DNA of 64,000 nucleotides from a bacterium (GCA_963675755.2 CAXXMD010000002.1:1376001-1440000); one strand, 5' to 3'; shown: positions 33,906 to 62,907, counted from the first letter of the stretch. Numbers and translations: made by a program. The notes: generated from the letters alone by a model not told the origin.

Positions 33906-33914
33906 GAAAAATCC

Positions 33915-35782: not shown

Positions 35783-35803
35783 TTTTACTCAACTATTTCA
35801 TTA

Positions 35804-37210: not shown

Positions 37211-37224
37211 TTTTTACTCCTCAA

Positions 37225-38205: not shown

Positions 38206-38219
38206 GCAATTTCCTGTTT

Positions 38220-41329: not shown

Positions 41330-41345
41330 TTTACACTCCTGTTAT

Positions 41346-42107: not shown

Positions 42108-42145
42108 ATATAAACCTGATGTTACATATAATATTTCATTTGCTT

Positions 42146-42226
42146 ATTATACTCATAATAAAATCAAAAATCAATAAAAATTAAAGATAATCGAAAGTAA
42201 TCGAAAGTAAATACTTTCGATTACTT
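42146..42226 (-). promoter_or_regulatory. sigma70 promoter and probable DeoR operator of the sugar ABC operon
   Basis: Minus-strand TTGATT (42174-42169)-17-TATAAT (42151-42146). Upstream are 10-bp tandem TAATCGAAAG repeats and a 15-bp perfect inverted repeat (42195-42209/42212-42226). Confidence 0.7.
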
Positions 42227-42228
42227 GA

Positions 42229-44082: not shown

Positions 44083-44119
44083 TTCTTTTCCCTCTCTGAT
44101 TTTGAATAACAGTTCATTG

Positions 44120-46171: not shown

Positions 46172-46186
46172 CTCGTTTTATCCTTG

Positions 46187-48472
46187 TCAGTTATTAAGCA
46201 ATTCCTGCAATATCATGGTGCTGCTAAGGTCTTTTATGGTCAGGTTTTTCTTGTTTCCGGCAGCATTCCATGCGGTTTTAATATATTTCAGTTCAGATTT
46301 ATCCAATGTTGTATCAATTTCACGTTTAGCATTGACCATATGGGTTAAAACCACATGCCTGGGCGCCAGAGATGCCAGTAATTGCGGGGTATCATAATAT
46401 GCCAGCACATTATGAATGAACAAAAACGGGCTTGCAGCGCCATATGGTTTTACCGCCAGCTCTTTAAAAGAACTCACCATATGGTCCAGCACAATATTTT
46501 CAATATTTTCATCCAATACTGCCGCATGCAGAGCCAGCATGGCACCGTCGCCATAGCCATAAATATCCAATGATTTCCCTTGCATATCCGGACGGGATTC
46601 CAGATATGCGATACCGCTCATCAAATCATGTAGCCGCATACCAAACAATGGTTTTTGCATTTCGTATGCAAAGGCATTAAAATCTGCTTCATTATCCTCT
46701 CTGCCGTAAATGATCTGATATCCTTTGAATACCGGGCCATCATCACGGTTCTTTTGCTCAGGGTGCGGATCAGCAAATTCATTATATCCCCGCAGGTCCA
46801 TTGCAAACACACGACAGCCGGATTGAGCAATTTGTTTTATGGTTTCTATACCATTGGCTTTGCCGCGCTCATGTACGTAGACAACCGTACGACCGGTTTC
46901 CCGATCAAAAGAATCCGGGGTCAGCAGTATGCCAGGCATCCACAGACCCCGGTCGGAGTGAAGTAAAATTCTTTCGAGTTTGAAATCATCACCACTGGAC
47001 GTATTAACAATACGAGACTCTACATTTGAAGGTATTGCATCCAGTTTCAAAACGGTTTTAATTTTATCCGAAACAGATTCCCGCAATGCATCAATATCAG
47101 ATCGTGATTTTATTTCAGCAAAAGATGGAGCAATTTCCCGAACATATTTTTCATTCAAGGTCAGTAACGATTCACTTCCCAACTCTTCAACAGAACCGGA
47201 TTGGGTAACATTAATATCTTTAGCGCCTCTAACCTCTACCGGTATTTCTACATTAGTTTCGTCCAGTTTGTCAAATTTCTGATTCAACCAGTGATACATG
47301 GTCTCACGAGATTCACGGTTGTAATTATGCGGCGCACCAATAAGATGATACGCTACAGTGCGGTCTCTATCATCGCCATACACACGAGTAAATACACCAT
47401 TGATCTCGTTATACATATCTACAGAAGTATTTAAAATATCTTTATCACCGGTGGCGTTAATAAGCATCATGTCTTTAACATTGTTCATCATGAGCAAATC
47501 AGACAATTCAAATCCATATCGAATACGTCCTGGAATGTTTTGCTCACCATCCAGATTGCCTTTTCCGGAATGCGGAACCGTACCATAATGCCAGTTAGCA
47601 CATACCGGAATAACTGCGGTAATTCGGGGATCAGCACCTGCAACATATTGTGTTTGAGATCCGCCTCCCGATGCACCGGTCACCGCAATGCGGCTTGTGT
47701 CTGCATTATCAAGACCGCACAAAACATCAATTCCACGGATACAATCCCAGATAAAGTAATTCGTCATATTATGTCCGGTTAGATGGAGCTGCAGGTTTAA
47801 TGCAATATGCTGATGTGTTGCCTGTCCCATGTCAGATTCCATTTCAGAATCAGGATTAAACAAAATCTTGCGTTCACCCTGCCCAAAGGGATCAAAGGCA
47901 AGCACGATATAGCCCAAACGCGCAAGCATGGAACAACGTTGCTGCATGTGTGTTGCACCTTTACCATCAATCTGTCCTTTACCTCCCCACCAGTGCCCGG
48001 TTGTACATAACATGAGCGGATAAGGAACGCTATGGGTCTTGGGCACATACAGATTTGCGGTTACCAGGTATCCCGGTAAACTTTCGTATGTAATTCGGGA
48101 CAGGTCATAATCTCCACAATCCACAGTACCATAGTATTTAACATTTAATGGTGATTTTTCAGGAAAAGGGCCTACACATTCCGTATAAATGTTGCGCATT
48201 TTTTCACGGTACAGATCAAATCCAGCGGCATCCTGAACCGCATCAAGCTCGGATCTACGTTGAGCAAAGGCAGCATCTGCTATATCTCCAAAATAATCCA
48301 GTAACTGCTGGTTTGGATCAGCTACATCCATACCTACAGAGATAACAACCAGATCTTTAACAGAAAGATCAGACAACTCGACAGCAGTACTTTTTAATGA
48401 TACTGTTAAGATAAATCCTAAAATCAAAATTCCCGGATAAAAACATAATTTTTTAATCATTTTCTTTATCAT
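46187..48472 (-). CDS. two-domain alpha/beta-hydrolase, acetylxylan/carbohydrate-esterase-like, copy 1
   Basis: YESLPGYLVTANLY.P, GH, DPFGQGER, WDCIRGID.L and TGASGGG nucleophile elbow; the second fold carries GYGDGA. Confidence 0.75.
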   Translation of the reverse strand: MIKKMIKKLCFYPGILILGFILTVSLKSTAVELSDLSVKDLVVISVGMDVADPNQQLLDYFGDIADAAFAQRRSELDAVQDAAGFDLYREKMRNIYTECVGPFPEKSPLNVKYYGTVDCGDYDLSRITYESLPGYLVTANLYVPKTHSVPYPLMLCTTGHWWGGKGQIDGKGATHMQQRCSMLARLGYIVLAFDPFGQGERKILFNPDSEMESDMGQATHQHIALNLQLHLTGHNMTNYFIWDCIRGIDVLCGLDNADTSRIAVTGASGGGSQTQYVAGADPRITAVIPVCANWHYGTVPHSGKGNLDGEQNIPGRIRYGFELSDLLMMNNVKDMMLINATGDKDILNTSVDMYNEINGVFTRVYGDDRDRTVAYHLIGAPHNYNRESRETMYHWLNQKFDKLDETNVEIPVEVRGAKDINVTQSGSVEELGSESLLTLNEKYVREIAPSFAEIKSRSDIDALRESVSDKIKTVLKLDAIPSNVESRIVNTSSGDDFKLERILLHSDRGLWMPGILLTPDSFDRETGRTVVYVHERGKANGIETIKQIAQSGCRVFAMDLRGYNEFADPHPEQKNRDDGPVFKGYQIIYGREDNEADFNAFAYEMQKPLFGMRLHDLMSGIAYLESRPDMQGKSLDIYGYGDGAMLALHAAVLDENIENIVLDHMVSSFKELAVKPYGAASPFLFIHNVLAYYDTPQLLASLAPRHVVLTHMVNAKREIDTTLDKSELKYIKTAWNAAGNKKNLTIKDLSSTMILQELLNN

Positions 48473-48479
48473 CCTGATT

Positions 48480-50726
48480 TTAATTCATAGAAAAATTACT
48501 AAATTTTTTAACAAAATGGTTCTGATCAACGTTTGTCAAGGTAAGACTTTTGCTAAAACTAGAGTCGTCAAAAGAATATACCTTTCTTACCAGATCTAAA
48601 TTCATTTCATGCCGATTCGCATCAACAACATTGGAAACAAAGACAGACCGATTGCCTAGCGATTTCAACAGATCAGGCACATCATAAAATGACAATACGT
48701 TGTGAACAAACAAATATGGACTCTGAGCCCCATAGGGTTGAATTGCCAGTTCACGAAAAGATACCGGTAAACGGTATAGCCCGATATGTTCAATATCGTT
48801 GCACATTACAGCCGCATGCAATGCAAGCATTGCACCGTCACCAAATCCACAAATCTCAAGCGCATGTTTAGACACATCCGATCGGGAACGCAGATAATTA
48901 ATCCCAACAAGCACATCCTTTAACCGCATACCGAAAAGTGGTTCTTCCAGTTCAATACCAAATGCGTTAAAATCCAGATCATAATCATCGGGACTGAAAA
49001 TAATATCATAACCGATAAAATCCGGATTATCATTACCGGGACTCTGTTCCGGATGTAGGTCCGGGTATTCATTAAATCCACGGGTATCAGAAGCAAAAAC
49101 CTGATATCCCTGCTTTACAAAATTGATGATATTTTCAAATCCGTTAGCCTTGCCACGTTCATGGATGTAAATTAAAGTACGGCCGTTATTTGGATTAAAA
49201 TGCTCAGGAGTCAACAGAATTGCAGGTATCCAGAGTTCATCTACCTGATAAACCAATTTTTCAATCTTGAAATCATCTCCCTGTGTAACATCTATTTGTT
49301 TGGTGGATGTAATTTCAGGTATGTTATTCAATTTCAACACAGTTTGAATTCGATTTTGCATATCCTGAGACGCAGGAACGATTTCTTTGGCAAACGTGGC
49401 GTTTATTGATAAAAGTGTTTCACTTTTCAGTTCTTCCAGATTACCAGATTGGGTAATATTGATATCCTGAGCTGGTAATTGTTTTACTGGTACTTCCAGT
49501 GCAGGAGCGTCTTGAATCACAAATTTCTGATCAAGCCAATTATATAGGGTTTCCCGGAATTCTCTGTTAAAACTATGCGGTGCACCAATGAGATGGTAAG
49601 ATATGGAACGACCATCAACTATAGGAAAAATTCGGTCATAAAGTCCCAGAATTTCATTATACATATTTACAGAACTGGATAAAAGCCTGGTATCGCCTGT
49701 GGCATTCATGAGCAGTACATCCCTGGCATTACTCATATAAAGCAAGTCTGCCAGGTCAAGTTCGTATTTAATCCTGCCGGGAATATTCTGTTCTCCATCA
49801 ACATTGCCAATACCGGGGTCGTGTTTATCTCCCTGCTGCCAATTGGAACATACAGGAACCACTGCTTTGATACGGGGATCAACAGCCGCAACAAATTGTG
49901 CTTGTGATCCCCCTCCCGAGGCACCAACAACAGCAATCCGTGTTGTATCCGCATTTTTCAAATTACAGAGGACATCAATCCCCCGTATACAATCCCAAAC
50001 AAACATTTGTGTTAAATTGTGGCCTGTTAAATGGAGCTGCAAGTTCATAACAATATGTTGATGTTTGTTACGACCCATTTTAGATTGATGCTCCATTGAC
50101 GGATCAAATAGCATCTTGCGTTCACCTTGTCCAAATGGATCGATTGCAAGTACAAGGCAACCATGCCGGGCCAGGTTGGCACATAGAATCTGTACGTGAT
50201 CAAAGCCTTTTCCATCCAATTCAGAGCCTCTGCCCCACCAGTGGCCGGTGGTGCTCAAAACCAGTGGGTATGGTCCTTCAAGCTGAACCGGACTGTACAA
50301 GTTGGCTGTTACAAGATAGCCAGGCATACTTTCAAACGTTATCCGACTGACAGTGTATTCACCACAATCTGTTGTCCCATAAAATTTCACATCAAGAGGG
50401 CATTTTTCAGGGAATTTGCCAAGAGCATGCTGATAATCCTTTTGCTTTGAAAAGCGGTAATCATCAAATTGAGAAATAGTAGTAATTGAATCCAGTACCT
50501 GTTTTCGATGTTGATACTTTTTTTGCATGATTCTGCTAAAATACGATAACAACTGCTGTTCGGGTGTGTTTAAATTATCATCCTCATTGATTACCTGAAA
50601 ATCTTTAACAGTCAAATCCGATAAACTTACTGCACCCAGATCAATTACAGCAGCAACCAGGATACAGCTTATGAATATGAAAAATATATTATCGAATTTC
50701 TTGAACCGCATACTTTTCTCAAACAA
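48480..50726 (-). CDS. two-domain alpha/beta-hydrolase, acetylxylan/carbohydrate-esterase-like, copy 2
   Basis: Colinear paralog of 46187-48472; VGASGGG; second domain GFGDGA. Confidence 0.75.
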   Translation of the reverse strand: MFEKSMRFKKFDNIFFIFISCILVAAVIDLGAVSLSDLTVKDFQVINEDDNLNTPEQQLLSYFSRIMQKKYQHRKQVLDSITTISQFDDYRFSKQKDYQHALGKFPEKCPLDVKFYGTTDCGEYTVSRITFESMPGYLVTANLYSPVQLEGPYPLVLSTTGHWWGRGSELDGKGFDHVQILCANLARHGCLVLAIDPFGQGERKMLFDPSMEHQSKMGRNKHQHIVMNLQLHLTGHNLTQMFVWDCIRGIDVLCNLKNADTTRIAVVGASGGGSQAQFVAAVDPRIKAVVPVCSNWQQGDKHDPGIGNVDGEQNIPGRIKYELDLADLLYMSNARDVLLMNATGDTRLLSSSVNMYNEILGLYDRIFPIVDGRSISYHLIGAPHSFNREFRETLYNWLDQKFVIQDAPALEVPVKQLPAQDINITQSGNLEELKSETLLSINATFAKEIVPASQDMQNRIQTVLKLNNIPEITSTKQIDVTQGDDFKIEKLVYQVDELWIPAILLTPEHFNPNNGRTLIYIHERGKANGFENIINFVKQGYQVFASDTRGFNEYPDLHPEQSPGNDNPDFIGYDIIFSPDDYDLDFNAFGIELEEPLFGMRLKDVLVGINYLRSRSDVSKHALEICGFGDGAMLALHAAVMCNDIEHIGLYRLPVSFRELAIQPYGAQSPYLFVHNVLSFYDVPDLLKSLGNRSVFVSNVVDANRHEMNLDLVRKVYSFDDSSFSKSLTLTNVDQNHFVKKFSNFSMN

Positions 50727-50743
50727 GATTAAACAGATTTACA

Positions 50744-52300
50744 TCATACTTTATTAATTCGTGACCATCCACTTATTGTTAAATTATCATCAAGCTTGGT
50801 TGATTTGAACAAGAAACTGCTAAAATAGCCAACCACCATCAAAACCAGATGACTGTAAACACCCAGCATATACTTGTGCTGTGAAAAATTAAATTTACCC
50901 AAATCCAACAAGATCCGGGGTTCATCTCCAATAGGGAACTTTGTCGAAGTCAACACGGCCCAACCGGTAAACAGTATACAGGCAATAATTCCAATATTAG
51001 CTCCCTGACGGTTTGCCCGTTTGCTGAACAAACCCAGAATAAACAGTCCTGCAATACCTCCGGAAAAAATAGCATACAGTGTAAAAACAATACCCAAAAC
51101 ACCGGTATCACCTGCTTTGACATACAATGTTGCTACAATCATTGCTGCCAAACCAGACAAAAGTACTACAGTTCTCCCTATAACCATTTGCTGTTTTTCC
51201 GTACAATTGGGATTAAAGCGTTTATAATAATCTTCAACTCCAATAGCGGCAAGACAGTTGAGGTCAGAGTCCAGGCTTGATATAGCTGCCGCTACCAAAG
51301 CGGCAAGGATCAGCCCGATGACACCAACAGGGAGTTCTGACATGATAAAAATCGGGAAAACCGCATCAGGACGAATATCTGCTGGTAATACACCACTATT
51401 GATTTGATAAAATGAATACAAGGCTGTACCAATAAACATAAAAATAGCCCAAACAGGTACGCTTAAAAACACACCCATTAAAGCAGCTTTGATAGCACCT
51501 TTTTCAGAACGTGCGGTAAGATAGCGTTGAACAATGGTCTGGTCTGTTCCATATTTCTGAATTGCGTAAAATACACCGTTCAGTGCCATTACAATAAATG
51601 TCAGTTTTTTAAAATCCCAATCAAAGGGGCCAAAACCCATTTTGTGATTTTCCATAGCTATTCTGATTACTTCTGAAGGGCCTCCCTCTGGTATAAAAAG
51701 CAGAAAGGCCATACAAAGCAAACCGCCGCCTATGAGCATAAATCCCTGAAATACATCTAGCCAGATAACCGCCTCTATCCCCCCGAGCAACGTAAGCACA
51801 ACCACTGATACACCCAGCACCCAGATAATCATATAGGTACTGACACCCATAATGTTGGAAAGAGCAAGGGCAAGCAAAAAGAAAACAGTACCCATTTTTG
51901 AAAAATGAGCAAGTATAAATGCCAGCGAGCTGTACAAACGCGCCATAAATCCAAATCTTTTCTCAAAATACTCGTAAGCACTAATACCAATAACCTGACG
52001 GTACAAGGGGACAATAAATTTCACCAACGCAACCAAAACAATGGGTACCATTAATCCCTGGACAAGACGTATCCAGTTTGACGCATAGCCTTCTCCGGGA
52101 TAGGCCAAAAAAGTTACACTACTGATTAATGTAGCAAGGATTGACATGCCCACAGCCCATGAAGGGATCGATCCGCTGGCCGCAAAATACTTTTTGGTAT
52201 TATTTTGACCACGTGAGAAAAACGCTCCAAGGCCCAATGCAATCAAGAGCGAAACAAAAATGATGATATAGTCAATAATATGCAATGCAGGTTGTTCCAT
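50744..52300 (-). CDS. sodium:solute symporter (SSS) family transporter
   Basis: WAVGMSILATLISSVTFLAYPG, SAYEYFEKRF, GGIEAVIWLD, DQTIVQRYL and AAAISSLDS motifs. Confidence 0.92.
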   Translation of the reverse strand: MEQPALHIIDYIIIFVSLLIALGLGAFFSRGQNNTKKYFAASGSIPSWAVGMSILATLISSVTFLAYPGEGYASNWIRLVQGLMVPIVLVALVKFIVPLYRQVIGISAYEYFEKRFGFMARLYSSLAFILAHFSKMGTVFFLLALALSNIMGVSTYMIIWVLGVSVVVLTLLGGIEAVIWLDVFQGFMLIGGGLLCMAFLLFIPEGGPSEVIRIAMENHKMGFGPFDWDFKKLTFIVMALNGVFYAIQKYGTDQTIVQRYLTARSEKGAIKAALMGVFLSVPVWAIFMFIGTALYSFYQINSGVLPADIRPDAVFPIFIMSELPVGVIGLILAALVAAAISSLDSDLNCLAAIGVEDYYKRFNPNCTEKQQMVIGRTVVLLSGLAAMIVATLYVKAGDTGVLGIVFTLYAIFSGGIAGLFILGLFSKRANRQGANIGIIACILFTGWAVLTSTKFPIGDEPRILLDLGKFNFSQHKYMLGVYSHLVLMVVGYFSSFLFKSTKLDDNLTISGWSRINKV

Positions 52301-52329
52301 TTGCAGCTCCTATATTGGTAAAACGGATC

Positions 52330-53475
52330 CTAGATAAAATCAGGCCATTTATAACTACCCGGCTTGACAGTTAAATTTATTTCCGGGTGACAGGCAACGT
52401 TCATTCGAACAACGCCAGGCCCCAGCTCCTGAGTGGGTATAAATCTTTGCCATCCCATATGTCTTACAATAGCAGATGCAGTTGATCCGCCTTCTACAAA
52501 CAATTCATTTACTTTAAACTGGTCAAGAATTTTTGCTACAATTACGGTTACAAGCTCCAACAGTCTTTCAGTCAAATTTTCAATAGGCGGAAGACTTTGA
52601 CTAACGGCAATTACCAATTTTTCACATCCGTTTATTTCTTTTAATATATTGCTTACCCATTCATCAATCGCTTTTTCTTTATTCTTGAAATTTTCCAAAA
52701 AGGATGCGGGAATCTCGCCCAGAATGAATTGTTTTTGTCCAAACATCTTGATCGAGTTTACTCGATTAGGTGAATTACTGCCGCAAACACACAGGACATT
52801 TTTTGAAAAATCTGGCAAAGAATCAAGTTCGATTTCCTGACGCTCAAATTGAGAACCAAGTAACGCATCAAAATAATCAGAACTGCCTGCAGGCAGGGTA
52901 TTCGCTGGGTTGATATTTGTCCAGGATCTCATTTCCATGCTATTATTGCATTCGCCAATCACAATTCCGGTTTCGGGAATTCCCTGATCTACAGAACGAT
53001 ATTCTAAATGCACTCCATCTTGATCTGTAAATCGTTTTAAAACATCAGATACAGCTACAGGAAAATCAATATCTTGTGCAAATTCAGTTTCATGTAGAGG
53101 TACACCATGTATATAATAATGCCCACCATCAATAACCCGACCGGCAGAAGGATTTGCAGGTACAAGTAAAGCCAATGGTATATTTAATTGATCCATCATT
53201 TCTTTTATCTCTGGCAACAAATGTCCCCGAAGAACGGAATCAATCTTTTTATAAATCCAATCTGGTGTAAGATCTCTCAACATTGTTGCAATTTCAGCAA
53301 TCTGCTCAACTGCATTTTCTTCAGTAGATGACCGGGTATTGGAATCGATTATAAGCAAATCTGATTCACAACTGGAAATGGGCTTTGTACATATCTCAAC
53401 ACTTTTGCCATAACGAAGAGCAATCCCTCCCATCTCGGCACTTCCCGAAAAATCATCTGCTACTACTGCTATCAT
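52330..53475 (-). CDS. four-carbon acid sugar kinase (DUF1537/DtnK-like)
   Basis: ADDFSGSAE, DSNTR, YKKIDSVLRG, PANP.AGR, EGGST and KPGS motifs. Confidence 0.88.
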   Translation of the reverse strand: MIAVVADDFSGSAEMGGIALRYGKSVEICTKPISSCESDLLIIDSNTRSSTEENAVEQIAEIATMLRDLTPDWIYKKIDSVLRGHLLPEIKEMMDQLNIPLALLVPANPSAGRVIDGGHYYIHGVPLHETEFAQDIDFPVAVSDVLKRFTDQDGVHLEYRSVDQGIPETGIVIGECNNSMEMRSWTNINPANTLPAGSSDYFDALLGSQFERQEIELDSLPDFSKNVLCVCGSNSPNRVNSIKMFGQKQFILGEIPASFLENFKNKEKAIDEWVSNILKEINGCEKLVIAVSQSLPPIENLTERLLELVTVIVAKILDQFKVNELFVEGGSTASAIVRHMGWQRFIPTQELGPGVVRMNVACHPEINLTVKPGSYKWPDFI

Positions 53476-53528
53476 TTACTACTCCTTGTCATCATCACTC
53501 TGATGAATTCTTTTACCACCTTTATAGT

Positions 53529-54569
53529 CTATTTCCTGCTCCTGGCCATTGTTACAGCATATTCAATAGCATAGATCAAAGCCATGGGACTTGCAATACC
53601 TTTACCCGCAATTTCAAATGCTGTTCCGTGATCCACTGAAGTTCTGATGATGGGCAATCCTAACGTAATATTCACGCCACTCACATTTTGCATCTGCTGT
53701 TTTTCATTATCCCATTTAAATCCTACCAGTTTGAATGGTATATGGCCCTGGTCATGATACATAGCAACACAGCCGTCATAATATCCACCAACTGCCTTGG
53801 GGAACAGGGTATCTGGTGGAACAGGACCTTCAGCATCAAGGCCCTCGGCAACAGCCTGTTCAATGGCGGGCCGAATGTGTTTTATCTCTTCATCACCAAA
53901 AAGCCCACCATCCCCCGAATGTGGATTCAATCCTGCCACACCAATCCGGGGATTAGATACGCCAAATTGCCTGCATGCCGTATCCATAAGTTTAATTACA
54001 TCCACAATACGGTCTTTTGTTATGATTTCACAAGCCTGATGCAATGAAACATGTGTGGTTACATGTATTACCCGAAAATTCTCATGCGCAAGCAGCATGG
54101 CAACACTGGGTGTATTGGTTAAATCAGCATATATCTCGGTATGACCGGAATAATGATGCCCCGCAAGATTTAATGCTTCCTTGTGCAGGGGCCCGGTAAC
54201 TGTGGCGTCTATTTCGTCTTCAAGAGCCAGTTCAATGACTTTTTTTACAGATTGAAAAGCGGCATTGCCGCACATGGCACTGATTTCGCCAAATCTAAAC
54301 TGGTCCATATTCACCAGATCCAGATCAATGATATCAATGGTACCAAATTCAAACCTCGCATCACTTACACGAGTACTTTTGTGGATATGAAAATCTTTTC
54401 CACTAAAAGTCATTGATTGCTGCAATATATTTGCATCCCCTATAACCAGGGGCTTGCACTTTTCATAAATATCAGGAATGGCCAATGCCTTTATAATGAT
54501 CTCTGGTCCTATCCCAGCCGGATCACCCATTGAAATTCCCAATATGGGTTTTGATTTAACATTTGACAT
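53529..54569 (-). CDS. pdxA: PdxA-family dehydrogenase (probable D-threonate-4-phosphate dehydrogenase PdxA2)
   Basis: MGDPAGIGPE, GHTE, TTH, LNPHSG, GPVPPDT, AMYHDQG and RTSVDHGTAF motifs. Adjacency to a DUF1537 kinase points to the PdxA2 subtype. Confidence 0.9.
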   Translation of the reverse strand: MSNVKSKPILGISMGDPAGIGPEIIIKALAIPDIYEKCKPLVIGDANILQQSMTFSGKDFHIHKSTRVSDARFEFGTIDIIDLDLVNMDQFRFGEISAMCGNAAFQSVKKVIELALEDEIDATVTGPLHKEALNLAGHHYSGHTEIYADLTNTPSVAMLLAHENFRVIHVTTHVSLHQACEIITKDRIVDVIKLMDTACRQFGVSNPRIGVAGLNPHSGDGGLFGDEEIKHIRPAIEQAVAEGLDAEGPVPPDTLFPKAVGGYYDGCVAMYHDQGHIPFKLVGFKWDNEKQQMQNVSGVNITLGLPIIRTSVDHGTAFEIAGKGIASPMALIYAIEYAVTMARSRK

Positions 54570-55484
54570 CTATTCTTCTCTGTAATTCATCAATTCTTTT
54601 AATGCGATTTCAATATTTTGTGTCTCGGATAAAGAAAGAGCTAACAGCGGTGGCAACACAGCATTTTCACACAATCCGAGTGAATGCATGCATGCTTTGA
54701 GTGCTGCAAGAGACTGGCTTAGAATGCGATCTTTTTGATACACAAGAGATATATCATTGGTTATTTGCTGCAACGGTTCTGCCTGGTCTTGATCTCCTTT
54801 TATAGCCGCTTGGTACAAATCGCAATACATACCAGGAACCAGGTTACCTGTACTGGGCACAATTCCATCCGCACCATTAAAAAGTGCGTAAGTGGATTGA
54901 GCGGCCCAACCTATTAGAAAACTAAACTCACTATTCTCTTTCCACAGGGAAAGACATTTTTCCAAACGCTCTGGGTCCCGCTCAGAGTCTTTTAATCCTG
55001 CAATATTGGAGTGCTTACTCAACGTCTCCAGTACATCCAATGGAATGGACATCCCCGTTGTACCGGGGATATTGTAAACAATCAACGGTACAGGACTGGC
55101 ATCTGCAAGTTTCTCAAAATAGTTTAACATATGTTCCGGAGTTAATGGATAATATTCCGGTAAATGGGCTACCACTGCATCAACTCCCAAGTCTGCAAAC
55201 TGTCTGGCCATTTCAACACTGGTCTGAAAACAAGTACTATCAATACCTGCATAGGTAAGCTCTCGTTTGTTGGTCACTCTTACCATTTCCGAAACCAGTT
55301 TTACTTTTTGATCCAAAGGTATAGATGCCGCTTCTCCGGTTGTTCCCAAAACAAAGGGACTGGTTTGTTCAGCAACCAGATGCTCTGTAATTTTGGCAAC
55401 TGCGCTTTTATCTACCTCTCCCGAATCGGTAAAAGGTGATACCATCGGAACAACCACACCGCTGTATTTCTTTTTAATAGTCAA
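54570..55484 (-). CDS. DHDPS/NAL family class I pyruvate aldolase
   Basis: GTTGE, YYP, VYNIP and GLKDS (Schiff-base Lys) motifs. Confidence 0.88.
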   Translation of the reverse strand: MTIKKKYSGVVVPMVSPFTDSGEVDKSAVAKITEHLVAEQTSPFVLGTTGEAASIPLDQKVKLVSEMVRVTNKRELTYAGIDSTCFQTSVEMARQFADLGVDAVVAHLPEYYPLTPEHMLNYFEKLADASPVPLIVYNIPGTTGMSIPLDVLETLSKHSNIAGLKDSERDPERLEKCLSLWKENSEFSFLIGWAAQSTYALFNGADGIVPSTGNLVPGMYCDLYQAAIKGDQDQAEPLQQITNDISLVYQKDRILSQSLAALKACMHSLGLCENAVLPPLLALSLSETQNIEIALKELMNYREE

Positions 55485-55497
55485 AATTCATCCCTGT

Positions 55498-56643
55498 TTA
55501 TAATGCATTCATATAGATTTCAGTGGCAATTTTTTTATCAATTGTAAGTGGATTATTTTTCAATAACCGGGTTACAGTTAACGCAGATTCAACCATTCCT
55601 GGAATATCATCCATTGTAATACCCAATTCCGACATTTTGAACGGTATATCTATATTTCTCATCAGGAATTTAAGCGATTCCACTCCGGCCATAGCAGTAT
55701 CTAAATCAGTACCAGCAAGATCTGCTCCCAATGCCAATGCAACCTGCGCAAAGCGCTCCGGTGCTGATGGTATGGTTGCTTGCATTACATATGGCATCAT
55801 AACCGCAATGGACAACCCATGGGGTACATGAAATTCACCACCTAACGGATATGCCAATGCATGCACTGCCGTTGTATTAACTGGCCCCAGGCACATACCG
55901 CCATACATACTTCCCAACGCTAATCTTGAACGGGCTTCTTTATCTCGTCCATTCTTCACCGCGGTTTCAAGATTTTCCGAAATATAGCGAATACCTTCAA
56001 GCGCATACATATCTACCATGGGATGTGCGTTAATATTGATATACGATTCAAGGCAATGTGATAAAGCATCTATGCCCGTATATGCAGTAACATTGGGTGG
56101 AACGGATAAAGCCAACAACGGATCTATATAGACCCGATCAGGTACCAGCCAGGGACTAATGATCCCTTTTTTCAGAGTATCACTTTCATCCAGCAATATA
56201 GAATTGGGAGACACTTCACTGCCCGTACCGGCGGTTGTTGGCAGACATGCCAGGAATATTTCCCTTCCCTGCAAATTACCAATGCCAATAGTATCATATA
56301 TATCCTGATTTCTGTTACAGAGTGCCGCCACAATCTTGGCCAGATCCATTACACTACCTCCGCCAATAGCAGCTACACTATCGATACTATGACTTGTTGC
56401 AATTTCCCGTATGCGCTCAGCATCGCGAACTGTGGGTTCACTGGCAAGATCATCAACAATAATTACAGTATCACAAGATTTTTGTAAAATTTTAATTTGT
56501 TCATCAATAACAGATACCAATGGTGCAATAGTTACAATTAATAAACTTTTAAACTCTAAAGATATAATATCATCTACAAACTGATCAATGCTGTTTTCTC
56601 CAAAAACAACATGACGGGGAAATGTAAAACTGGTATTTTTCAT
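55498..56643 (-). CDS. iron-containing alcohol dehydrogenase family protein
   Basis: GGGSVMD, PTTAGTGSE, GIDALSH.LE, VHAL and VPHG motifs. Confidence 0.92.
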   Translation of the reverse strand: MKNTSFTFPRHVVFGENSIDQFVDDIISLEFKSLLIVTIAPLVSVIDEQIKILQKSCDTVIIVDDLASEPTVRDAERIREIATSHSIDSVAAIGGGSVMDLAKIVAALCNRNQDIYDTIGIGNLQGREIFLACLPTTAGTGSEVSPNSILLDESDTLKKGIISPWLVPDRVYIDPLLALSVPPNVTAYTGIDALSHCLESYININAHPMVDMYALEGIRYISENLETAVKNGRDKEARSRLALGSMYGGMCLGPVNTTAVHALAYPLGGEFHVPHGLSIAVMMPYVMQATIPSAPERFAQVALALGADLAGTDLDTAMAGVESLKFLMRNIDIPFKMSELGITMDDIPGMVESALTVTRLLKNNPLTIDKKIATEIYMNAL

Positions 56644-56668
56644 GATATAAAATGTATTTCTCCAAGTG

Positions 56669-58555
56669 TTAATAGTCAGTTCTAAAATTCTTTAAATAAT
56701 ATACAACCGGTGCAACAGGATCGTCAGGACCTTTTTCATCAAATCCCGGAACAAACTGATCACCGCTCTTGTATTCGGTCACATCATCGGTTAACCGATA
56801 ATCGCCTGTACGAAAGATAATCCGTTCGGGAACAGTCCCTTTGGCAGAAAAAGCAGCGTTTGTTACCAACTTTTTGCCATTTAATGATAAATTAAACTGT
56901 TCTTTTTTCGCGTCCAGATCGATTTTAACAGTATACCATTTCCCGGATTCTATTTCAGTAACTGATGTTGCATTATCATTCCCTTGTTTCACTAAAAGTG
57001 AACCGGTTGTATCAAATCTGGCCTGAACCAAACGTTCTCCTTTGGCAGACACAACTTCAACATCAAGCACCTGGTGCTGACATTCTGCATATAAATCAAA
57101 CGAGATTTGCTGATTTTCAGATTTGTTAAATACCCGAACTGCTTTGGCATAGTCATAGGGATCCACATCTTTGAGCATTAAACACTTTTCTGATGCATTG
57201 GGAGCCACAACGATTTCTACCGGGCACCATTGGGGACTGTAAATATTCCAGTCGGTTACTACACCTCCGGTTTCCATTTCATTAAAATTATCATCAATGG
57301 GACCTGTAACTTCTCCACATACAGGCACCGGTATGCGGGAAATCCACATATCTTCCTTACTCACTGAATATACTACCCAGAGGTCATCTCCCGGCGGGTT
57401 GCCATTACCTTCAATAATACCTCGTACATATTGTGGTCCGGGTCGTTTTTCACGTCCCCAAAATCTTTTGAGGGGTACTTCGCTGTGAACATTTAACAAA
57501 TTATCAAAATGGATTCCATCGTCACCGGTTGCAATACTGAGCGGATGTCTTGCCAAACCGGCAGTAGGATTATAAACAAGTGCGTACTGCCCGTTATCCA
57601 TACGCTGTGCCCAAATCTTTGCACCGCCATAAGACAGGGTATTGCACTGTACGGGTTCTGACCAGCTTTCGCCATGATCATAGCTCAAAGTAGTCCAGCG
57701 GGCTTTGAAAAAACCAACCAGTACACTGTCCGGCCGGGTATAATAACAAAAAGCCTGTCCCGGACTTTTCTCTCCATCATCCATGATCCAGGGTACACGA
57801 TAAAAATCATCCTTGTTTGCTGCGGTACGATCTTCTTCCCACCATTGTATGCGTTTGACCTTGTCATTTAAAAAAGCATCACAGGCAGATACAAAACCTT
57901 TATCATCAGATTCCGTATACATTGGGTAGGTCATGTCTTTCTCCCGCCCAAAGTTGGTTTTGATACTGTAAATGGGACCAAAGGTATTGTCCGTATAAAC
58001 TTCACGCACAACACGTCCTACACCATCACCTTTGTTACCACCATAAAAACCAAAAGCCAGCAGTCTGCCATCAGGGGCTACATAAAAAGCCATACGCTGG
58101 TGCATATGAATGAGATCTACCCAGTCGCCTTCTCCCGGCAAAAAATAGATGGGAAATATAACCTGAGGTTTGCTCCAGTTTTTGCCATCTTTAGAATGGG
58201 TAACAAGTGTTACGCCTGGTGGAATATGTTCACCAGTAGGATTTGACAGATAAATACAATAAAACATACCATTCCAATACGTCAGCATAGGCGCATGGTT
58301 ATAGGTCCACCCCATATCATCAGCCAGCTCGGGATGGGTCCGGTTGGCTCGTAATATCTGGTAATTCTGCACACCCACAGCGGGACGGAATTGTCCGTCA
58401 TGGTAACCGGAGTCATAATCACTGTTTGACGTAGTAACAGGACCAACATAACGTACCGGTTCAGATTTATCTCCGGGTTTAGCATAAATTTGGATAATAC
58501 TAAATAATACAATCAGCAGAATTGATATAATGTGTTCAATTTTTATTGGTTTCAT
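56669..58555 (-). CDS. GH143-like beta-propeller glycosidase (BT1020 N-terminal Dha-hydrolase-like), stand-alone
   Basis: HDGQFRPAVGV..QILRANR, WTYNHAPML.YWN, GEHIPPG, MHQRM.FY, GVGRVVRE, GPQYVRGI.EGNG and YSVSKED.W motifs, recalled as BT1020-like; Asp-box-like SYDHGESW. No GH142 domain follows. Confidence 0.72.
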   Translation of the reverse strand: MKPIKIEHIISILLIVLFSIIQIYAKPGDKSEPVRYVGPVTTSNSDYDSGYHDGQFRPAVGVQNYQILRANRTHPELADDMGWTYNHAPMLTYWNGMFYCIYLSNPTGEHIPPGVTLVTHSKDGKNWSKPQVIFPIYFLPGEGDWVDLIHMHQRMAFYVAPDGRLLAFGFYGGNKGDGVGRVVREVYTDNTFGPIYSIKTNFGREKDMTYPMYTESDDKGFVSACDAFLNDKVKRIQWWEEDRTAANKDDFYRVPWIMDDGEKSPGQAFCYYTRPDSVLVGFFKARWTTLSYDHGESWSEPVQCNTLSYGGAKIWAQRMDNGQYALVYNPTAGLARHPLSIATGDDGIHFDNLLNVHSEVPLKRFWGREKRPGPQYVRGIIEGNGNPPGDDLWVVYSVSKEDMWISRIPVPVCGEVTGPIDDNFNEMETGGVVTDWNIYSPQWCPVEIVVAPNASEKCLMLKDVDPYDYAKAVRVFNKSENQQISFDLYAECQHQVLDVEVVSAKGERLVQARFDTTGSLLVKQGNDNATSVTEIESGKWYTVKIDLDAKKEQFNLSLNGKKLVTNAAFSAKGTVPERIIFRTGDYRLTDDVTEYKSGDQFVPGFDEKGPDDPVAPVVYYLKNFRTDY

Positions 58556-58579
58556 GTGTTTTCCATAATTTTAAATTTA

Positions 58580-61285
58580 TTAAAAAAGCTCAGCAATACC
58601 TTCGGAAAGGAAATGATAGCTACCGGATTCAAGTTCAAATATTGCAATTTCACCTTGCATTTCTATAAAATGTACACCACCAGATTGTTCAACAGGTAGC
58701 ATATTCTCCTTGACCTCATCGATACTAAATGCAGGTAAATGCAATTCCGCGGTTGTATTTGCGGGTATGGTCACATCCAGAACCAAATCATTGTCACGGA
58801 TTTTCCAACTTGACTCGATTCGACCATACAATGATGTATAATGCGAATTGACATACTGAATGATCTTGTTAGGTTGTGGTTTGATGAGTATCTTTTTAAA
58901 TCCTGCTTCAGCGTTATCTATACCCGCCATAACCGCAAACATCCATTCACAAACAGAACCAAAGGCATAATGACTGAATGAATTCATACCATCCGGATTA
59001 AACCCGCCATCTATGGTATAACTGTTCCAGCGTTCCCAAATTGTGGTAGCGCCGTTTACAACCGAATAGCCCCATGAGGGGAAATCTGTATTCACAAGCA
59101 GTTGATAAGCAAGATCTGTATATCCGAAACGGGTCAACGAGGGCAAAAGATGTTTAACCCCCAGAAAACCGGTTGCCAGATTACCATTATTTTCTTTAAT
59201 CAAATCAGCAAGATACTTTGCAGCCCTTGCCTCTTGCTCTGGATCCAGCAAACCGAAATACAATGCCAATGTATAACTGGTTTGTGTATGTTCAGAGATT
59301 CGACCATTACTGGCCACATATTTATCTTTGAATGCCAGACGGATTTTTTCAAAAAGATCAGTGTAATATTGGATATCACTATCTTTACCCAAAACAGCAG
59401 CAATTTCAGTCATCAACTTGACATCATAGGCATAAAACGCAGTGGCCAAATAATCAAGCGAGGTTTGTGCACCAATCGCCAGCCAGTCACCCCAGTCATT
59501 TTCATTTGCCGTCAGCAGGTATCCATTAGAGCGATTGTTCAAATATTCTATAAATTTTCGCATTGCCGGATACATGTACTCGAGCAGACGTTTATCTCCA
59601 TACATCTGATAGATAACCCAGGGTACGATAACTCCGGCATCTACCCATCCTGATGCCTGTTCTTTTTTGAATACAAATGAATACGGCGCCCAATCGGTAA
59701 AGATTCCATCCTCTTTTTGGGCATCTACCAGATCAACCAACCATTTGCGCATAAAAGATGCAATATTTGCATTATAAGCTGCGGAGCGGACATAAATTTG
59801 TGCATCTCCACTCCATCCACAACGTTCATCTCGTTGGGGACAATCTGTTGGCACTTCAAAGAAATTGGAACGCTGTGTCCACAAAATATTGCTGTATAAT
59901 TGGTTTACCATATCATCTGAACAATCCAGTCGTCCGGCAGGTTGAATATCAGAATTTACAATAATACCGGTTACGGTATGTTCATCCGGGACAAATGACA
60001 AGCCGCGTACCTCAACATACTGAAAACCGTGATATGTGAAACGTGGCTGCCAGAGTTCAGTACCATTTCCATTCAAAATATAAGTATCCGTTGCTCTTGC
60101 AAATCGCAGGTTCTCTGTCATTAAACTTCCATCAGGATGGAGCATTTCACCATAACGGATTACAATCTTGCTGCCAGCCTCACCGGATACTTTGATGCGT
60201 GCAAAACCTGCAAAATTTTGTCCCATATTAAAAAGGTACACACCTTTTTCAGGCTCGGTTATTTCAATGGGTGTCATCTCTCCGGTTCTGCGCACAGGTA
60301 CCGTAGGATATCCTTGTAAAACACCTTTTGCAGGTTCAATAAGATCAACCGGTTTCCAGGTTTTCTCAATATATCCCGCGTGGTTCCAGCCTAAAAGTTC
60401 GCTGCAGGCGTCATACGTTTCGCCCATGAACAGGTCCGCTTCTTTAATCGGGCCTATGGCAGACGTCCATGACGAATCAGAACAAATGACCTGCTTCTCC
60501 CCATTTTCCAGCTCCACCTCCAGTTGACACAGCAACGCAGGGGTATCACCATATTGATTACGGGGATTGGGGATATTTTGATCCAGACAAAAGCCTACAT
60601 AACCGGCATACCAACCGTCAGCAAGAATGGCACCCAGGGCATTTTCGCCTTTGAACAAAAGGTGCGTCACATCAAAGGTGTGATAATAGATACGCTTGTT
60701 GTAATCTGTCCAACCCGGCACAAACATCCGGTTACCGACTTTGTCACCATTGATAGACGGTTCAACCAGTCCCAGTGCGGTAACATACAATGTAGCCTGA
60801 ACCGGATTTTCATCGAGTTCAAAGGTTTTCCTCAAATACGGGCTGGGCGGTAATCTTAGATCTTTGCCGCGAAATTCAGCAGGATAGTCGTCCAAATTCC
60901 GGTTCCGGCCTATCCATTGGGCCTGCCAGTCATTTTTTCCCAGCAATCCCATGGACCACATGTTAATATCACTCCAGGGTGACCATGTATCATTTTTGTC
61001 CCAAATTCTGACCTGCCAATAACAGTGCATGCGGGATTTCAAAGGTTTTCCCTTGTATGGAACAAGCACACACTGATCACTCGTTACTTTACCGGAATCC
61101 CAGAGATCAGCAAAGTCCCGTTTCAACAAATCCTGACCGGAAGCCACACGAATCTGGTACGCGGTCTGTTTTTGACCGCGTTGTTCAGATTCAACAATCC
61201 AGCTCAAACCTGGTTGAGTAATATCGATCCCAAGAGGATTATCGAGGTACTCACAGGTCAGTTTACTAACACGAACATCTGTCAT
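58580..61285 (-). CDS. GH78 alpha-L-rhamnosidase
   Basis: WDSGKV, MGQNFAG, PRFTYHGFQY, PTDCPQRDER.GWSGD, GATTIWERW and MNSFSHY motifs; no signal peptide. Confidence 0.93.
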   Translation of the reverse strand: MTDVRVSKLTCEYLDNPLGIDITQPGLSWIVESEQRGQKQTAYQIRVASGQDLLKRDFADLWDSGKVTSDQCVLVPYKGKPLKSRMHCYWQVRIWDKNDTWSPWSDINMWSMGLLGKNDWQAQWIGRNRNLDDYPAEFRGKDLRLPPSPYLRKTFELDENPVQATLYVTALGLVEPSINGDKVGNRMFVPGWTDYNKRIYYHTFDVTHLLFKGENALGAILADGWYAGYVGFCLDQNIPNPRNQYGDTPALLCQLEVELENGEKQVICSDSSWTSAIGPIKEADLFMGETYDACSELLGWNHAGYIEKTWKPVDLIEPAKGVLQGYPTVPVRRTGEMTPIEITEPEKGVYLFNMGQNFAGFARIKVSGEAGSKIVIRYGEMLHPDGSLMTENLRFARATDTYILNGNGTELWQPRFTYHGFQYVEVRGLSFVPDEHTVTGIIVNSDIQPAGRLDCSDDMVNQLYSNILWTQRSNFFEVPTDCPQRDERCGWSGDAQIYVRSAAYNANIASFMRKWLVDLVDAQKEDGIFTDWAPYSFVFKKEQASGWVDAGVIVPWVIYQMYGDKRLLEYMYPAMRKFIEYLNNRSNGYLLTANENDWGDWLAIGAQTSLDYLATAFYAYDVKLMTEIAAVLGKDSDIQYYTDLFEKIRLAFKDKYVASNGRISEHTQTSYTLALYFGLLDPEQEARAAKYLADLIKENNGNLATGFLGVKHLLPSLTRFGYTDLAYQLLVNTDFPSWGYSVVNGATTIWERWNSYTIDGGFNPDGMNSFSHYAFGSVCEWMFAVMAGIDNAEAGFKKILIKPQPNKIIQYVNSHYTSLYGRIESSWKIRDNDLVLDVTIPANTTAELHLPAFSIDEVKENMLPVEQSGGVHFIEMQGEIAIFELESGSYHFLSEGIAELF

Positions 61286-61467
61286 GAAGCTGTATCATCC
61301 TTTTTCTTTTGCATCCAAAACGGAGCGGTTAAAAACCACAAAAACATACCCGCCAGCATCAGTTGTGCATGCAGGTCCCAGGAAATAACCTGTTTAAATA
61401 CAAAAAAAGAGGGTAATATAGTCAAAGCCAGACCTATGTATGACAATACCATTAATAAAGTTCTCAT
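61282..61467 (-). CDS. small two-TM membrane protein
   Basis: 61 aa with two hydrophobic helices; fills the gap between the transporter and GH78 genes and overlaps the GH78 start. Confidence 0.7.
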   Translation of the reverse strand: MRTLLMVLSYIGLALTILPSFFVFKQVISWDLHAQLMLAGMFLWFLTAPFWMQKKKDDTAS

Positions 61468-61470
61468 AGC

Positions 61471-62907
61471 CTAGGCCTCCACGGTTTTGTTAAGATTAGT
61501 ACTTTTAACACCAAACAGACCATATTTCTGTTCCAATGCGCTGAATGTAATATAAAAGATCACAGTAATGAACCAGCCGGGAAGTGCCAGAAAATAGATT
61601 TCAAGGCTGTATTTAAAATACAAATAGAGACACACTGCCAGTGATCCTCCCCATGCAAGCGCAGAAGGAATACTGAACATTTTATTCATCAATTCAGCAT
61701 AGTTGCTTTTTAATCCAATTTTGGGGAACACCCAGAAATCGATAAAAATAAATGCGCCAACCGGCATAAAAATAAGGCCATAAAGCGCAACAACTTCGGT
61801 TAAACGGTTTACAACCGCGGGAAACATGGCAATAATAGTTGTTGCAGTACCGGCAACCAGGGTCACTTTCCAGCGTTTCCAGTCCGGAGTAGCTACCTGG
61901 AATGCCAAACCTGCACGGTACAGGGTAGGATTCGCAGTAGTCCATCCGGCAACTACAACCGTTACAGCGCCAACAACACCTGCGCCTAATAATGCAATGG
62001 GTCCGGGAGCAATACTATTATTGGGATTAATAGCAAGTGCAGCGGCACATAATATACCAGATGAAACCCAGGCTACATAATGCCCCAGGAACATTCCAAA
62101 AGCGGATGCAAAACCATAGGTCCATTTTTTAGCATAACGGAACAGCGTCATATCTGACATACCAATATGCTGGTGAAGATTACACAACCATGAGAAAAAG
62201 ATTACATGCCAAATGGTAAATTTGGATTGGCCGGCAACTACATTACCGGTCCAAATTTTTTCATTGGCAACGGACCAGAAATCAGAAAGAGAAGTAACAC
62301 CCAGCTTTGGCAATACCGCAAAAGCAGATGCCACAAAGACCAGAAACATCCAGGGTGCACTGACTTTGGCAAACTTGGCCAGTTTTTCAAAACCTAAAAT
62401 CGCAAGTAATGAAACGACAGTTCCAACAACAAATACAACTACAACCCATGTTACACTTGTGGGCATGGTATCGGTCAGTTTGGGCATGGGCATATTAAAA
62501 GGCAGCCCTACAGCTGTTGCCGAAACGGTAACCATAGCCCCGGCAAGCAGACACAAGATTAATGCGTATAAAATTCCGTAAATAAAAGTTAAATATGGTC
62601 CACAAATTTTTCGGATCTGCCAGTATACGGTCAAGCGGGTTCTGACTGCGATTGGAGCGCAATACAATGCCCAACTTAAAACTGCAAGAATATTACCAAT
62701 TATCAGACCGATAAACAGGTCGGGTGCGGTTACGCCATGAACAACAAACAAGGGTCCCAGCACAAATTCTGTTCCGGCAATATGTTCACCGGAAAACATT
62801 GCAATAAAATTAGATGCCCCCTGCAACTTGTTTTTTGACACCGGCTCACGGTCAAATTCATACAAACCGTCAAGCCGCTTGATCAATCCACCTTTTTCTT
62901 TACTCAA
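61471..62907 (-). CDS. NCS1/cytosine-permease-like secondary transporter
   Basis: About 12 TM helices; GEHIAGTEF, GNILAVLSW, FRYAK and GWTTANPTLY motifs. Confidence 0.75.
   Translation of the reverse strand: MSKEKGGLIKRLDGLYEFDREPVSKNKLQGASNFIAMFSGEHIAGTEFVLGPLFVVHGVTAPDLFIGLIIGNILAVLSWALYCAPIAVRTRLTVYWQIRKICGPYLTFIYGILYALILCLLAGAMVTVSATAVGLPFNMPMPKLTDTMPTSVTWVVVVFVVGTVVSLLAILGFEKLAKFAKVSAPWMFLVFVASAFAVLPKLGVTSLSDFWSVANEKIWTGNVVAGQSKFTIWHVIFFSWLCNLHQHIGMSDMTLFRYAKKWTYGFASAFGMFLGHYVAWVSSGILCAAALAINPNNSIAPGPIALLGAGVVGAVTVVVAGWTTANPTLYRAGLAFQVATPDWKRWKVTLVAGTATTIIAMFPAVVNRLTEVVALYGLIFMPVGAFIFIDFWVFPKIGLKSNYAELMNKMFSIPSALAWGGSLAVCLYLYFKYSLEIYFLALPGWFITVIFYITFSALEQKYGLFGVKSTNLNKTVEA

Follow-up and report, generated by a model that had tools for sequence, protein, structure and literature searches.

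Few known glycans are as complex as rhamnogalacturonan II (RG-II), on which bacteria of gut and soil feed. How its glycosidic bonds are broken has been mapped; the fate of its rare acid sugars has not. Among described bacterial systems, the sialic acid (Nan) clusters combine a sialidase, a SiaT symporter and a NanA lyase, and the pairing of a DUF1537 kinase with PdxA2 turns a 4-carbon 2,3-dihydroxy acid into dihydroxyacetone phosphate (DHAP) and CO2. Zhang and colleagues reportedly described D-threonate catabolism by such a pair, the DUF1537 kinase DtnK and PdxA2, in PNAS in 2016, and Carter and colleagues are said to have described catabolic pathways for the RG-II sugar D-apiose in 2018. The bacterial DNA considered here is a 64,000-nucleotide stretch (GCA_963675755.2 CAXXMD010000002.1:1376001-1440000), referred to as the window, which its gene content marks as a pectin/RG-II degradation locus. 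Six contiguous genes on its minus strand (50744-58555) form a unit that probably frees Dha (3-deoxy-D-lyxo-heptulosarate), a rare sugar acid of the plant wall, from RG-II, imports it, and converts it to pyruvate, DHAP, and CO2. No Dha catabolic pathway is described in the full-text literature searched, subscription papers and supplements lying outside that search; the available part of a 2026 RG-II preprint treats the pathways for secreted Kdo (3-deoxy-D-manno-octulosonate) as unconfirmed and is silent on what becomes of Dha.

The six open reading frames (ORFs) are intact and lie, in the ORF listing, exactly where the sequence-only reading of the window had placed them, and Pfam agrees with the families it had named. 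In order of transcription, they encode a standalone GH143-like hydrolase (56669-58555; 628 amino acids, aa; PF24067 1.8e-81 and PF22585 3e-34); a group III iron-containing alcohol dehydrogenase (Fe-ADH; 55498-56643; 381 aa; PF00465 and PF25137, its N-terminal and its C-terminal domain); a class I pyruvate aldolase of the dihydrodipicolinate synthase/N-acetylneuraminate lyase (DHDPS/NAL) family (54570-55484; 304 aa; PF00701 1.9e-49); a PdxA2-like dehydrogenase (53529-54569; 346 aa; PF04166 2.4e-107); a short, divergent DUF1537 kinase (52330-53475; 381 aa; PF07005 1.7e-32 and PF17042 2.9e-8); and a SiaT-like sodium:solute symporter (50744-52300; 518 aa; PF00474 (SSF) 6.1e-43). Successive genes are spaced by 25, 13, 0, 53, and 29 nt. 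The median lengths of the orthologue clusters (631, 381, 306, 345, 386, and 521 aa) match all six proteins, and none of the genes looks broken. The string that holds the six genes is longer than was claimed: a GH78 alpha-L-rhamnosidase gene (58580-61285, minus strand; five GH78 Pfam domains, best 1.6e-119) belongs to it 24 nt upstream of the GH143 gene, and on the 3' side it continues, with gaps of at most 17 nt or overlaps, into genes for two esterases, a GH42-like protein, and a PL11 lyase. The GH78 gene is RG-II context and stands outside the catabolic unit. A promoter and terminator scan of 42000-61800 gave 58 promoter-like sites (56.9 expected) and 21 terminator-like ones (15.8 expected); as none of either kind falls inside the gaps between the six genes, the scan is uninformative on operon structure.

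In the proposed route, a GH142-type enzyme encoded outside the unit would first strip the arabinofuranose cap, after which the exported GH143 would free Dha from side chain D. The SiaT-like sodium symporter would import Dha, and the DHDPS/NAL-family aldolase would split it between C3 and C4 to give pyruvate and D-threuronate (2,3-dihydroxy-4-oxobutanoate). Fe-ADH would reduce the aldehyde of D-threuronate to yield D-threonate, the DUF1537 kinase would convert this to 4-phospho-D-threonate, and the PdxA2-like enzyme would oxidize C3 to a product that decarboxylates to DHAP and CO2. The net reaction would be Dha + ATP to pyruvate + DHAP + CO2 + ADP, and the route would be redox-neutral because the NAD(P)H spent by the dehydrogenase would be regained at PdxA2. 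Such a route would join a sialic-acid-like front end to a D-threonate back end.

We infer every substrate and the order of the steps from the established chemistry of the families. A class I pyruvate aldolase requires a 2-keto-3-deoxy acid, and a 7-carbon diacid of this kind would yield pyruvate and a 4-carbon acid aldehyde, so that one reduction would provide the tetronate for DUF1537/PdxA2. A 7-carbon 2-keto-3-deoxy diacid thereby appears to be the only substrate type that would employ every enzyme. Dha is a sugar of this type and is the one that GH143 frees. Routes drawn on paper for Kdo, aceric acid, 5-keto-4-deoxyglucarate, and 4-deoxy-5-hexosulose uronate were rejected, as each would idle at least one of the four enzymes. 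The stereochemistry was re-derived by hand. In D-lyxo Dha, the hydroxyls at C4 and C5 point left and that at C6 points right; after cleavage and reduction at C4, the former C5 is C3 and the former C6 is C2 of the product, which, numbered from the former C7, has C2 left and C3 right and is D-threonate. The assignment of D-threonate in the sequence-only reading agrees with this derivation, and its paper chemistry likewise balances, every gene having a role and the carbon of Dha being accounted for as pyruvate, DHAP, and CO2.

The families, the catalytic residues, and the gene order are observed directly, as is the linkage to GH143 and RG-II genes. The hydrolase at 56669-58555 is a GH143 homologue, as had been proposed. 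It matches PF24067 ('BT_1020-like N-terminal beta propeller') with 273.7 bits against a cut-off of 27 and PF22585 (a sialidase-like carbohydrate-binding module) with 118.6 bits, and its residues 49-615 align with residues 38-600 of the 1108-aa PDB entry 5mqr_A (E 5e-121). This entry we take to be BT1020, with which the Pfam family name agrees. The gene is single-copy in the 6.48 Mb genome. By a simple heuristic, the protein has a signal-like hydrophobic stretch at residues 9-21, and the four soluble enzymes are without one. In the accessible part of a 2026 review, a table lists the BT1020 N-terminus as a GH143 'DHA-hydrolase' of RG-II side chain D and the C-terminus as GH142; BT1020 is the one protein for which the activity is known. 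The standalone GH143 is named here as the proposed releaser of side chain D's Dha. At 52% identity, C2:1466607-1468043 of the window's genome matches the C-terminal half of a fused GH143-GH142 protein of 1102 aa from another genome (L082), so a GH142-type enzyme that could uncap Dha is encoded ~27 kb beyond the window. To be complete, the pathway would also require such a GH142-type arabinofuranosidase, which is not among the six genes.

The aldolase retains the residues of its family. Its K165, Y137, and GTTGE (47-51) align with the DHDPS Lys and Tyr motifs of 3pud, and among 61 aldolase orthologues of the unit K165 and Y137 are each present in 61/61 and GTTGE in 60/61; their roles are presumably those of the Schiff-base lysine, the catalytic tyrosine, and the GxTGE motif. 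At the equivalent of DapA Arg138, the window aldolase reads YNIPGTTG where 3pud reads YNVPGRTG, and the position is Thr in 56/61 unit aldolases and Arg in none. The score against the dapA model TIGR00674 (151.7) falls under its cut-off of 206.15, and those against NanA models also fall short (NF003164, 113 vs. 281; TIGR00683, 87 vs. 382). PDB matches are stronger to DHDPS (1e-36) than to NanA (1e-21), with YagE-type enzymes at 3.9e-26, and an archaeal 2-keto-3-deoxygluconate/2-keto-3-deoxy-6-phosphogluconate (KDG/KDPG) aldolase model matches at 7.3e-31. Other DHDPS-family paralogues are present elsewhere in the genome. Judged by these residues and scores, the window protein is a pyruvate aldolase and not DapA. 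Fe-ADH is the proposed D-threuronate reductase. Its GGGS (94-97), D192, H196, H261, and H275 are kept in at least 95% of 50 aligned orthologues and presumably form the nucleotide motif and the Asp/His/His/His metal site. Against NCBIfam it scores highest with the models for lactaldehyde reductase (242 bits against a cut-off of 523) and for 4-hydroxybutyrate dehydrogenase (199 bits), every match lying below cut-off.

The PdxA-like protein matches PF04166 with 359 bits and the NCBIfam PdxA2 model NF002891 with 330.5 bits, the latter below its cut-off of 583. Its matches to the structures 4jqp, 2hi1 ('...dehydrogenase 2'), and 6e85 ('D-threonate 4-phosphate dehydrogenase') reach E 1e-85 to 1e-90, while PdxA structures give ~1e-54; in bits, 2hi1 and 6e85 score ~290 and the E. 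coli-type PdxA structures 188. These much stronger matches to PdxA2 structures place the window protein on the PdxA2 side of the family. H173, H217, and H272, which we take to be the metal ligands, are kept in at least 95% of 71 sequences. The gene in this string is the only PdxA-family gene of the genome, which also encodes both PdxJ and PdxS. The D-apionate oxidoisomerase ApnO, first considered as a PdxA-family enzyme acting on an unphosphorylated acid, was dropped as a comparison: the accessible part of a 2026 JBC paper aligns it with ketol-acid reductoisomerase and makes no mention there of PdxA.

The kinase carries both DUF1537 domains, PF07005 (SBD_N) with 113.5 bits and PF17042 (NBD_C) with 34.8 bits. 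Among NCBIfam models it scores best with the D-threonate kinase NF047819, at 123.3 bits against a cut-off of 450; the 3-oxo-tetronate kinase model comes next at 65 bits. It is proposed to be a D-threonate 4-kinase. The subfamily of ~380 aa has 2350 relatives at E of 1e-10 or below, the closest non-self relative being 43% identical. The symporter finds its best PDB match in 5nv9_A (E 7.4e-79, 269 bits), well ahead of the next (162 bits, 1.5e-46); 5nv9 is the sialic-acid symporter SiaT. Of the residues presumed to bind the substrate carboxylate in SiaT, S60 and T63 are retained, and the R135 position is Lys in the window and K/R in 38/56 orthologues. Arg78, considered as a ligand for the second carboxylate of Dha, was dropped, being Leu in 36/56 orthologues. 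Symporter orthologues are the best conserved members of the unit, at 55-68% identity in most loci, and the protein is proposed to be the inner-membrane Dha importer.

The unit recurs well beyond the window. A kinase profile made from 25 aligned relatives was scanned against one genome per species, giving at least 592 matches, at least 497 of which encode a relative; the counts of kinase loci below are from the best 80 of these at least 497 loci. Unit genes were called by tblastn with the window proteins at 50% coverage or more, and a locus holding ADH, aldolase, PdxA, and kinase together is termed a core locus. The core is present in 57/80 loci, whose record titles and tree labels are of Bacteroidota, Balneolota, Ignavibacteriota, Planctomycetota, Verrucomicrobiota, and others. 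With the symporter, all five genes stand together in 51, and 37 of those 51 keep the window's order. Many of the 23 non-core loci are cut off by contig ends, and 8 loci whose upstream flank measures 8.9 kb or more hold only the kinase or the PdxA-kinase pair. All ORFs near the loci were clustered and Pfam was run on representatives; the recurrent neighbors are GH78, BNR_2, DUF3826, GH143, MGH1-like (which is the GH142-like family), GH2, DUF6298, GH140, GH141, and BT_3657-like. At least one RG-II-type neighbor lies within 10 kb in 32/57 core loci and in 0/23 non-core loci, and GH78 neighbors the unit in 17-18 of the 57.

The 61 unit aldolases form a single clade in a quick tree. A variant unit of the order SSS-ADH-ALD-PdxA-K, at ~40% identity to the window proteins, is found in Verrucomicrobiota/Acidobacteriota (L022, L041, L044, L047, L049, and L062); GH143 occurs in one of these six genomes, and the variant may use another hydrolase or another substrate. 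Seven Chitinophagaceae loci (L006, L012, L024, L031, L036, L063, and L071) have a second DHDPS-family aldolase immediately upstream of the unit. It adjoins the BNR_2 hydrolase or a second symporter in 6/7, and very long branches in the quick tree set it off from the unit aldolases, which makes it a candidate for a separate module for Kdo or another ulosonic acid.

The co-occurrence of the five-gene unit with GH143 and RG-II loci, expected by the sequence-only reading, is borne out. GH143 is encoded somewhere in 57/80 genomes, including 49/57 with the core and 0/8 of those with an untruncated kinase-only or PdxA-kinase-only locus. By tblastn, 16/57 core loci have it within 10 kb of the unit; by ORF cluster, 14 do. 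In the 34 genomes that carry GH143 and the kinase on one contig, the two are at most 20 kb apart in 26, 20-45 kb apart in 7, and 755 kb apart in 1, so a 10-kb limit undercounts the linkage. Most assemblies that permit the comparison have the unit and GH143 together in one large locus.

Since RG-II genes all travel together, 167 species genomes of the window's phylum were stratified by gene content. GH143 is present in 20 and the kinase in 15; 11 have both, 4 the kinase only, 9 GH143 only, and 143 neither (Fisher p = 3.7e-9, kinship uncorrected). The 11 double-positive genomes span six family-level groups, and in 9/11 the two genes are at most ~15 kb apart on one contig. The profile of the BNR_2 neighbor, whose matches to solved sialidases are weak (E 2e-4 or worse, the best match being a lectin at 2.6e-5), is found in 34 of the phylum's genomes. 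The kinase is present in 5/7 genomes with both GH143 and BNR_2, 6/13 with GH143 only, 0/27 with BNR_2 only, and 4/120 with neither. Among 26 genomes with a strong GH140 match (E of 1e-98 or below), it occurs in 4/7 with GH143 and 0/19 without. In the window's phylum, the kinase follows GH143, not BNR_2 or GH140. In 400 genomes drawn evenly from the phylum of Pedobacter puniceum (G170), with the center excluded, 16 carry GH143, 4 carry the kinase subfamily, and 3 carry both.

These comparisons support the interpretation of the unit as a Dha pathway, and several observations weigh against it. Dha is a very minor sugar. The dehydrogenase, aldolase, PdxA-like protein, and kinase all score below NCBIfam equivalog cut-offs, and the alignment of the kinase to DtnK covers the N-terminal domain only (residues 2-156 for NF047819). 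Bacteroides thetaiotaomicron has no DUF1537 match at all, so the unit is missing there. Eight of the 57 core genomes (L001, L022, L035, L041, L042, L044, L047, and L067) have no GH143, five of them in or beside the Verrucomicrobiota/Acidobacteriota-type variant clade. In the window's phylum, 4/15 kinase-bearing genomes are without GH143, two of these being 74% and 85% complete, and GH143-bearing genomes are without the unit in 9/20 cases there and in 13/16 of the Bacteroidota sample. Within 10 kb of the unit, GH78 and BNR_2, a pair of side chain C type, are found about as often as GH143 (15 vs. 14-16 loci). The association counts carry no correction for phylogeny, and, related genomes not being independent, the Fisher values (3.7e-9 and 2e-4) overstate the case.

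The frequency of GH78 and BNR_2 raises the possibility that the unit serves another RG-II acid sugar instead of or besides Dha, such as Kdo from side chain C, aceric acid, or an oxidized galacturonate product. The two genes are directly upstream of the unit in 15 loci, the table in the accessible part of the 2026 review lists BT1013 as GH78 plus KDO hydrolase on side chain C, and a SiaT-like symporter with an NAL-like aldolase would suit any ulosonic acid. Such a use is nevertheless unlikely. Cleavage of Kdo would give pyruvate and D-arabinose, leaving the kinase and PdxA without substrates; 5-keto-4-deoxyglucarate would give a 3-carbon aldehyde and leave PdxA idle; and aceric acid lacks the 2-keto-3-deoxy motif on which a pyruvate aldolase would act. 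The kinase is also absent from all 27 genomes of the window's phylum that have BNR_2 without GH143 and present in 6 of the 13 with the reverse combination, and the distant second aldolase beside BNR_2 in Chitinophagaceae, in some loci with a second symporter, looks like a module of its own. A general module for tetronates (D-threonate or D-erythronate) that is merely located in pectin loci is an unlikely alternative as well. Here the aldolase and dehydrogenase would serve an unrelated 2-keto-3-deoxy acid, for example a 2-keto-3-deoxy-pentonate cleaved to glycolaldehyde, which would then be reduced; the YagE-type matches of the aldolase (3.9e-26), the lactaldehyde reductase model of the dehydrogenase, and the 8 untruncated loci with neither gene fit this. 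It sits poorly with the occurrence of the four genes together in 57/80 loci, mostly in one order and with near-zero gaps in the window, with the single clade of unit aldolases, and with the distribution of GH143, which none of the 8 kinase-only or PdxA-kinase-only genomes has and 49/57 full-core genomes have.

Dha could also be consumed by the same four enzyme classes in another order, with a carbon balance that likewise closes on paper. The PdxA-like enzyme would decarboxylate free Dha (C5/C7) to 2,5-diketo-3-deoxygluconate (DKII), the dehydrogenase would form KDG, the kinase KDPG, and the aldolase pyruvate and glyceraldehyde 3-phosphate. The match of the aldolase to the archaeal KDG/KDPG aldolase model (7.3e-31) is in keeping with this order, and one member of the PdxA family, terephthalate dihydrodiol dehydrogenase (4aty, E 1.3e-34), does act on a substrate that is not phosphorylated. 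The window protein is, however, far nearer the PdxA2 structures (1e-85 to 1e-90) than 4aty, the best kinase model is a D-threonate kinase, and PdxA and kinase are a conserved adjacent pair that is also free-standing in untruncated loci, as in known tetronate modules. After DKII, moreover, ordinary pectin enzymes would suffice, which would leave a strictly co-conserved special kinase and aldolase unexplained, and the order is quite improbable. Least credible, and very improbable, is a role of the PdxA-kinase pair in vitamin B6 metabolism, where it would phosphorylate 4-hydroxy-L-threonine and feed PdxJ. The genome has PdxJ and a single PdxA-family gene, and a 2023 paper, in its accessible part, reports PdxA2 to be capable of the reaction of PdxA and refers to DUF1537 kinases by which an intermediate is recycled. 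But PdxS, of the route independent of 1-deoxy-D-xylulose 5-phosphate, is encoded too, and the pair lies within a catabolic string, among glycosidases and a symporter, its presence tracking GH143; a B6 role of the pair may at most be a side function.

Around the unit, same-strand genes of the window include GH78, a GH140 at the right edge, the two large esterases, the GH42-like protein, PL11, and a DeoR regulator. Past the right edge are apiosidase-like, GDSL, BNR_2, two GH28, and GH43-like genes, with the GH142-like gene further on. The stretch 32409-42107 (minus strand) holds, besides the DeoR regulator, genes for the binding protein, ATPase, and permease of a sugar ABC transporter, for a fucose-isomerase-C-domain protein, for a transketolase split into N and C halves, and for an FGGY kinase. 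This cluster presumably resembles a transketolase-type D-apiose pathway; its apiose-type genes span 32409-41329, close to RG-II glycosidases. For D-apiose catabolic pathways, the accessible part of the 2026 preprint cites Carter et al. 2018.

The GH140 apiosidase-like gene at the right edge (window 63157-64000; G000:C2:1439277-1440282) is read in two overlapping frames that cover profile positions 211-319 and 1-214. A genome of the same genus (G085) has it as one intact 481-aa frame, and the split is possibly a frameshift or sequencing error. Beside it, a 478-aa protein (61471-62907, minus strand) has no Pfam or PDB match. A protein atlas places it (score 0.99) among purine-cytosine-permease-like transporters, and on contig C3 a paralogue with 55% identity is found next to a different GH140; the 478-aa protein may import a further RG-II product. 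It had been considered as the GH142 and was rejected, given its lack of PDB and Pfam matches, its transporter-like placement, and the location of GH142-like genes elsewhere. The esterases 3' of the unit (46187-50726, minus strand) are two tandem 750-aa proteins, mutually 51-53% identical, each with AXE1 and alpha-beta-hydrolase matches; in several loci, shorter relatives (cluster 'Est') come after the symporter gene. A 467-aa protein that matches no Pfam family (27131-28534, minus strand; family 'c9'), flanked by Sde182 nucleoside-hydrolase-like and DUF5060 proteins, has three further copies in the genome and recurs in 11 kinase loci (e.g., L065:19356-21110) as an uncharacterized companion of RG-II loci. 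At 5341-9921 (minus strand), a subtilase and a laminin-G/lectin-like protein both have type IX secretion C-terminal sorting domains, and a PorV-like gene is found just past the window (L083:18341-19354).

Taken as a whole, the comparisons support, without proving, a combination of known enzyme families into a new pathway for a new substrate. A broader proposal is evenly balanced between acceptance and doubt: RG-II loci in at least five phyla would carry a dedicated redox-neutral 'ulosaric acid' pathway, with a GH143, SiaT-like, and NAL-like front and a back of Fe-ADH, short DUF1537 kinase, and PdxA2. This would be the first Dha catabolic route, and the second aldolase-symporter pair beside BNR_2 in Chitinophagaceae would be the matching Kdo module. 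If true, four enzyme subfamilies would gain new specificities and the generic annotations 'four-carbon acid sugar kinase family', 'PdxA', 'dihydrodipicolinate synthase family', and 'iron-containing ADH' would gain functions in these subfamilies. The unit would explain the difference between Dha consumers and non-consumers such as B. thetaiotaomicron, and would be a genomic marker of Dha eaters and leakers in cross-feeding. The enzymes could also be used to make or detect Dha and D-threuronate.

The likenesses to described systems run through every part of the unit, each with its own departures. Homology to BT1020 of the B. thetaiotaomicron RG-II degradome spans the whole GH143 part, but the window enzyme is standalone, and its GH142-like counterpart is a separate gene ~27 kb off. 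The front end shares with the Nan clusters an exported sialidase-fold hydrolase, a sodium:solute symporter nearest 5nv9, and a pyruvate lyase of the NAL/DHDPS family. It differs from them in an aldolase closer to DHDPS than to NanA, in the dehydrogenase, kinase, and PdxA2 that stand downstream instead of NanK/NanE, and in the sugar, which would be a 7-carbon diacid. With DapA, the aldolase has in common the fold, the Schiff-base lysine, the tyrosine, and the GTTGE motif, while Thr in place of Arg138 and the TIGR00674 score set it apart. DapA condenses pyruvate with a 4-carbon aldehyde acid, and the proposed cleavage would be the formal reverse on a 7-carbon 2-keto-3-deoxy diacid, a chemistry that fits an aldolase nearest to DHDPS enzymes.

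The back end is closest to the DtnK/PdxA2 system, in which, as in the window, a DUF1537 kinase is adjacent to a PdxA-family dehydrogenase; the best kinase model and the best dehydrogenase structures are of the D-threonate type. The window kinase is nevertheless short and divergent, both proteins fall below the equivalog cut-offs, and the pair is joined with an aldolase, a dehydrogenase, and a symporter within RG-II loci. In the window system, the tetronate would arise inside the cell, not by import. The D-apiose pathways concern another sugar and other enzymes; they are an earlier example of a rare RG-II sugar with dedicated routes that are encoded beside the RG-II glycosidases.

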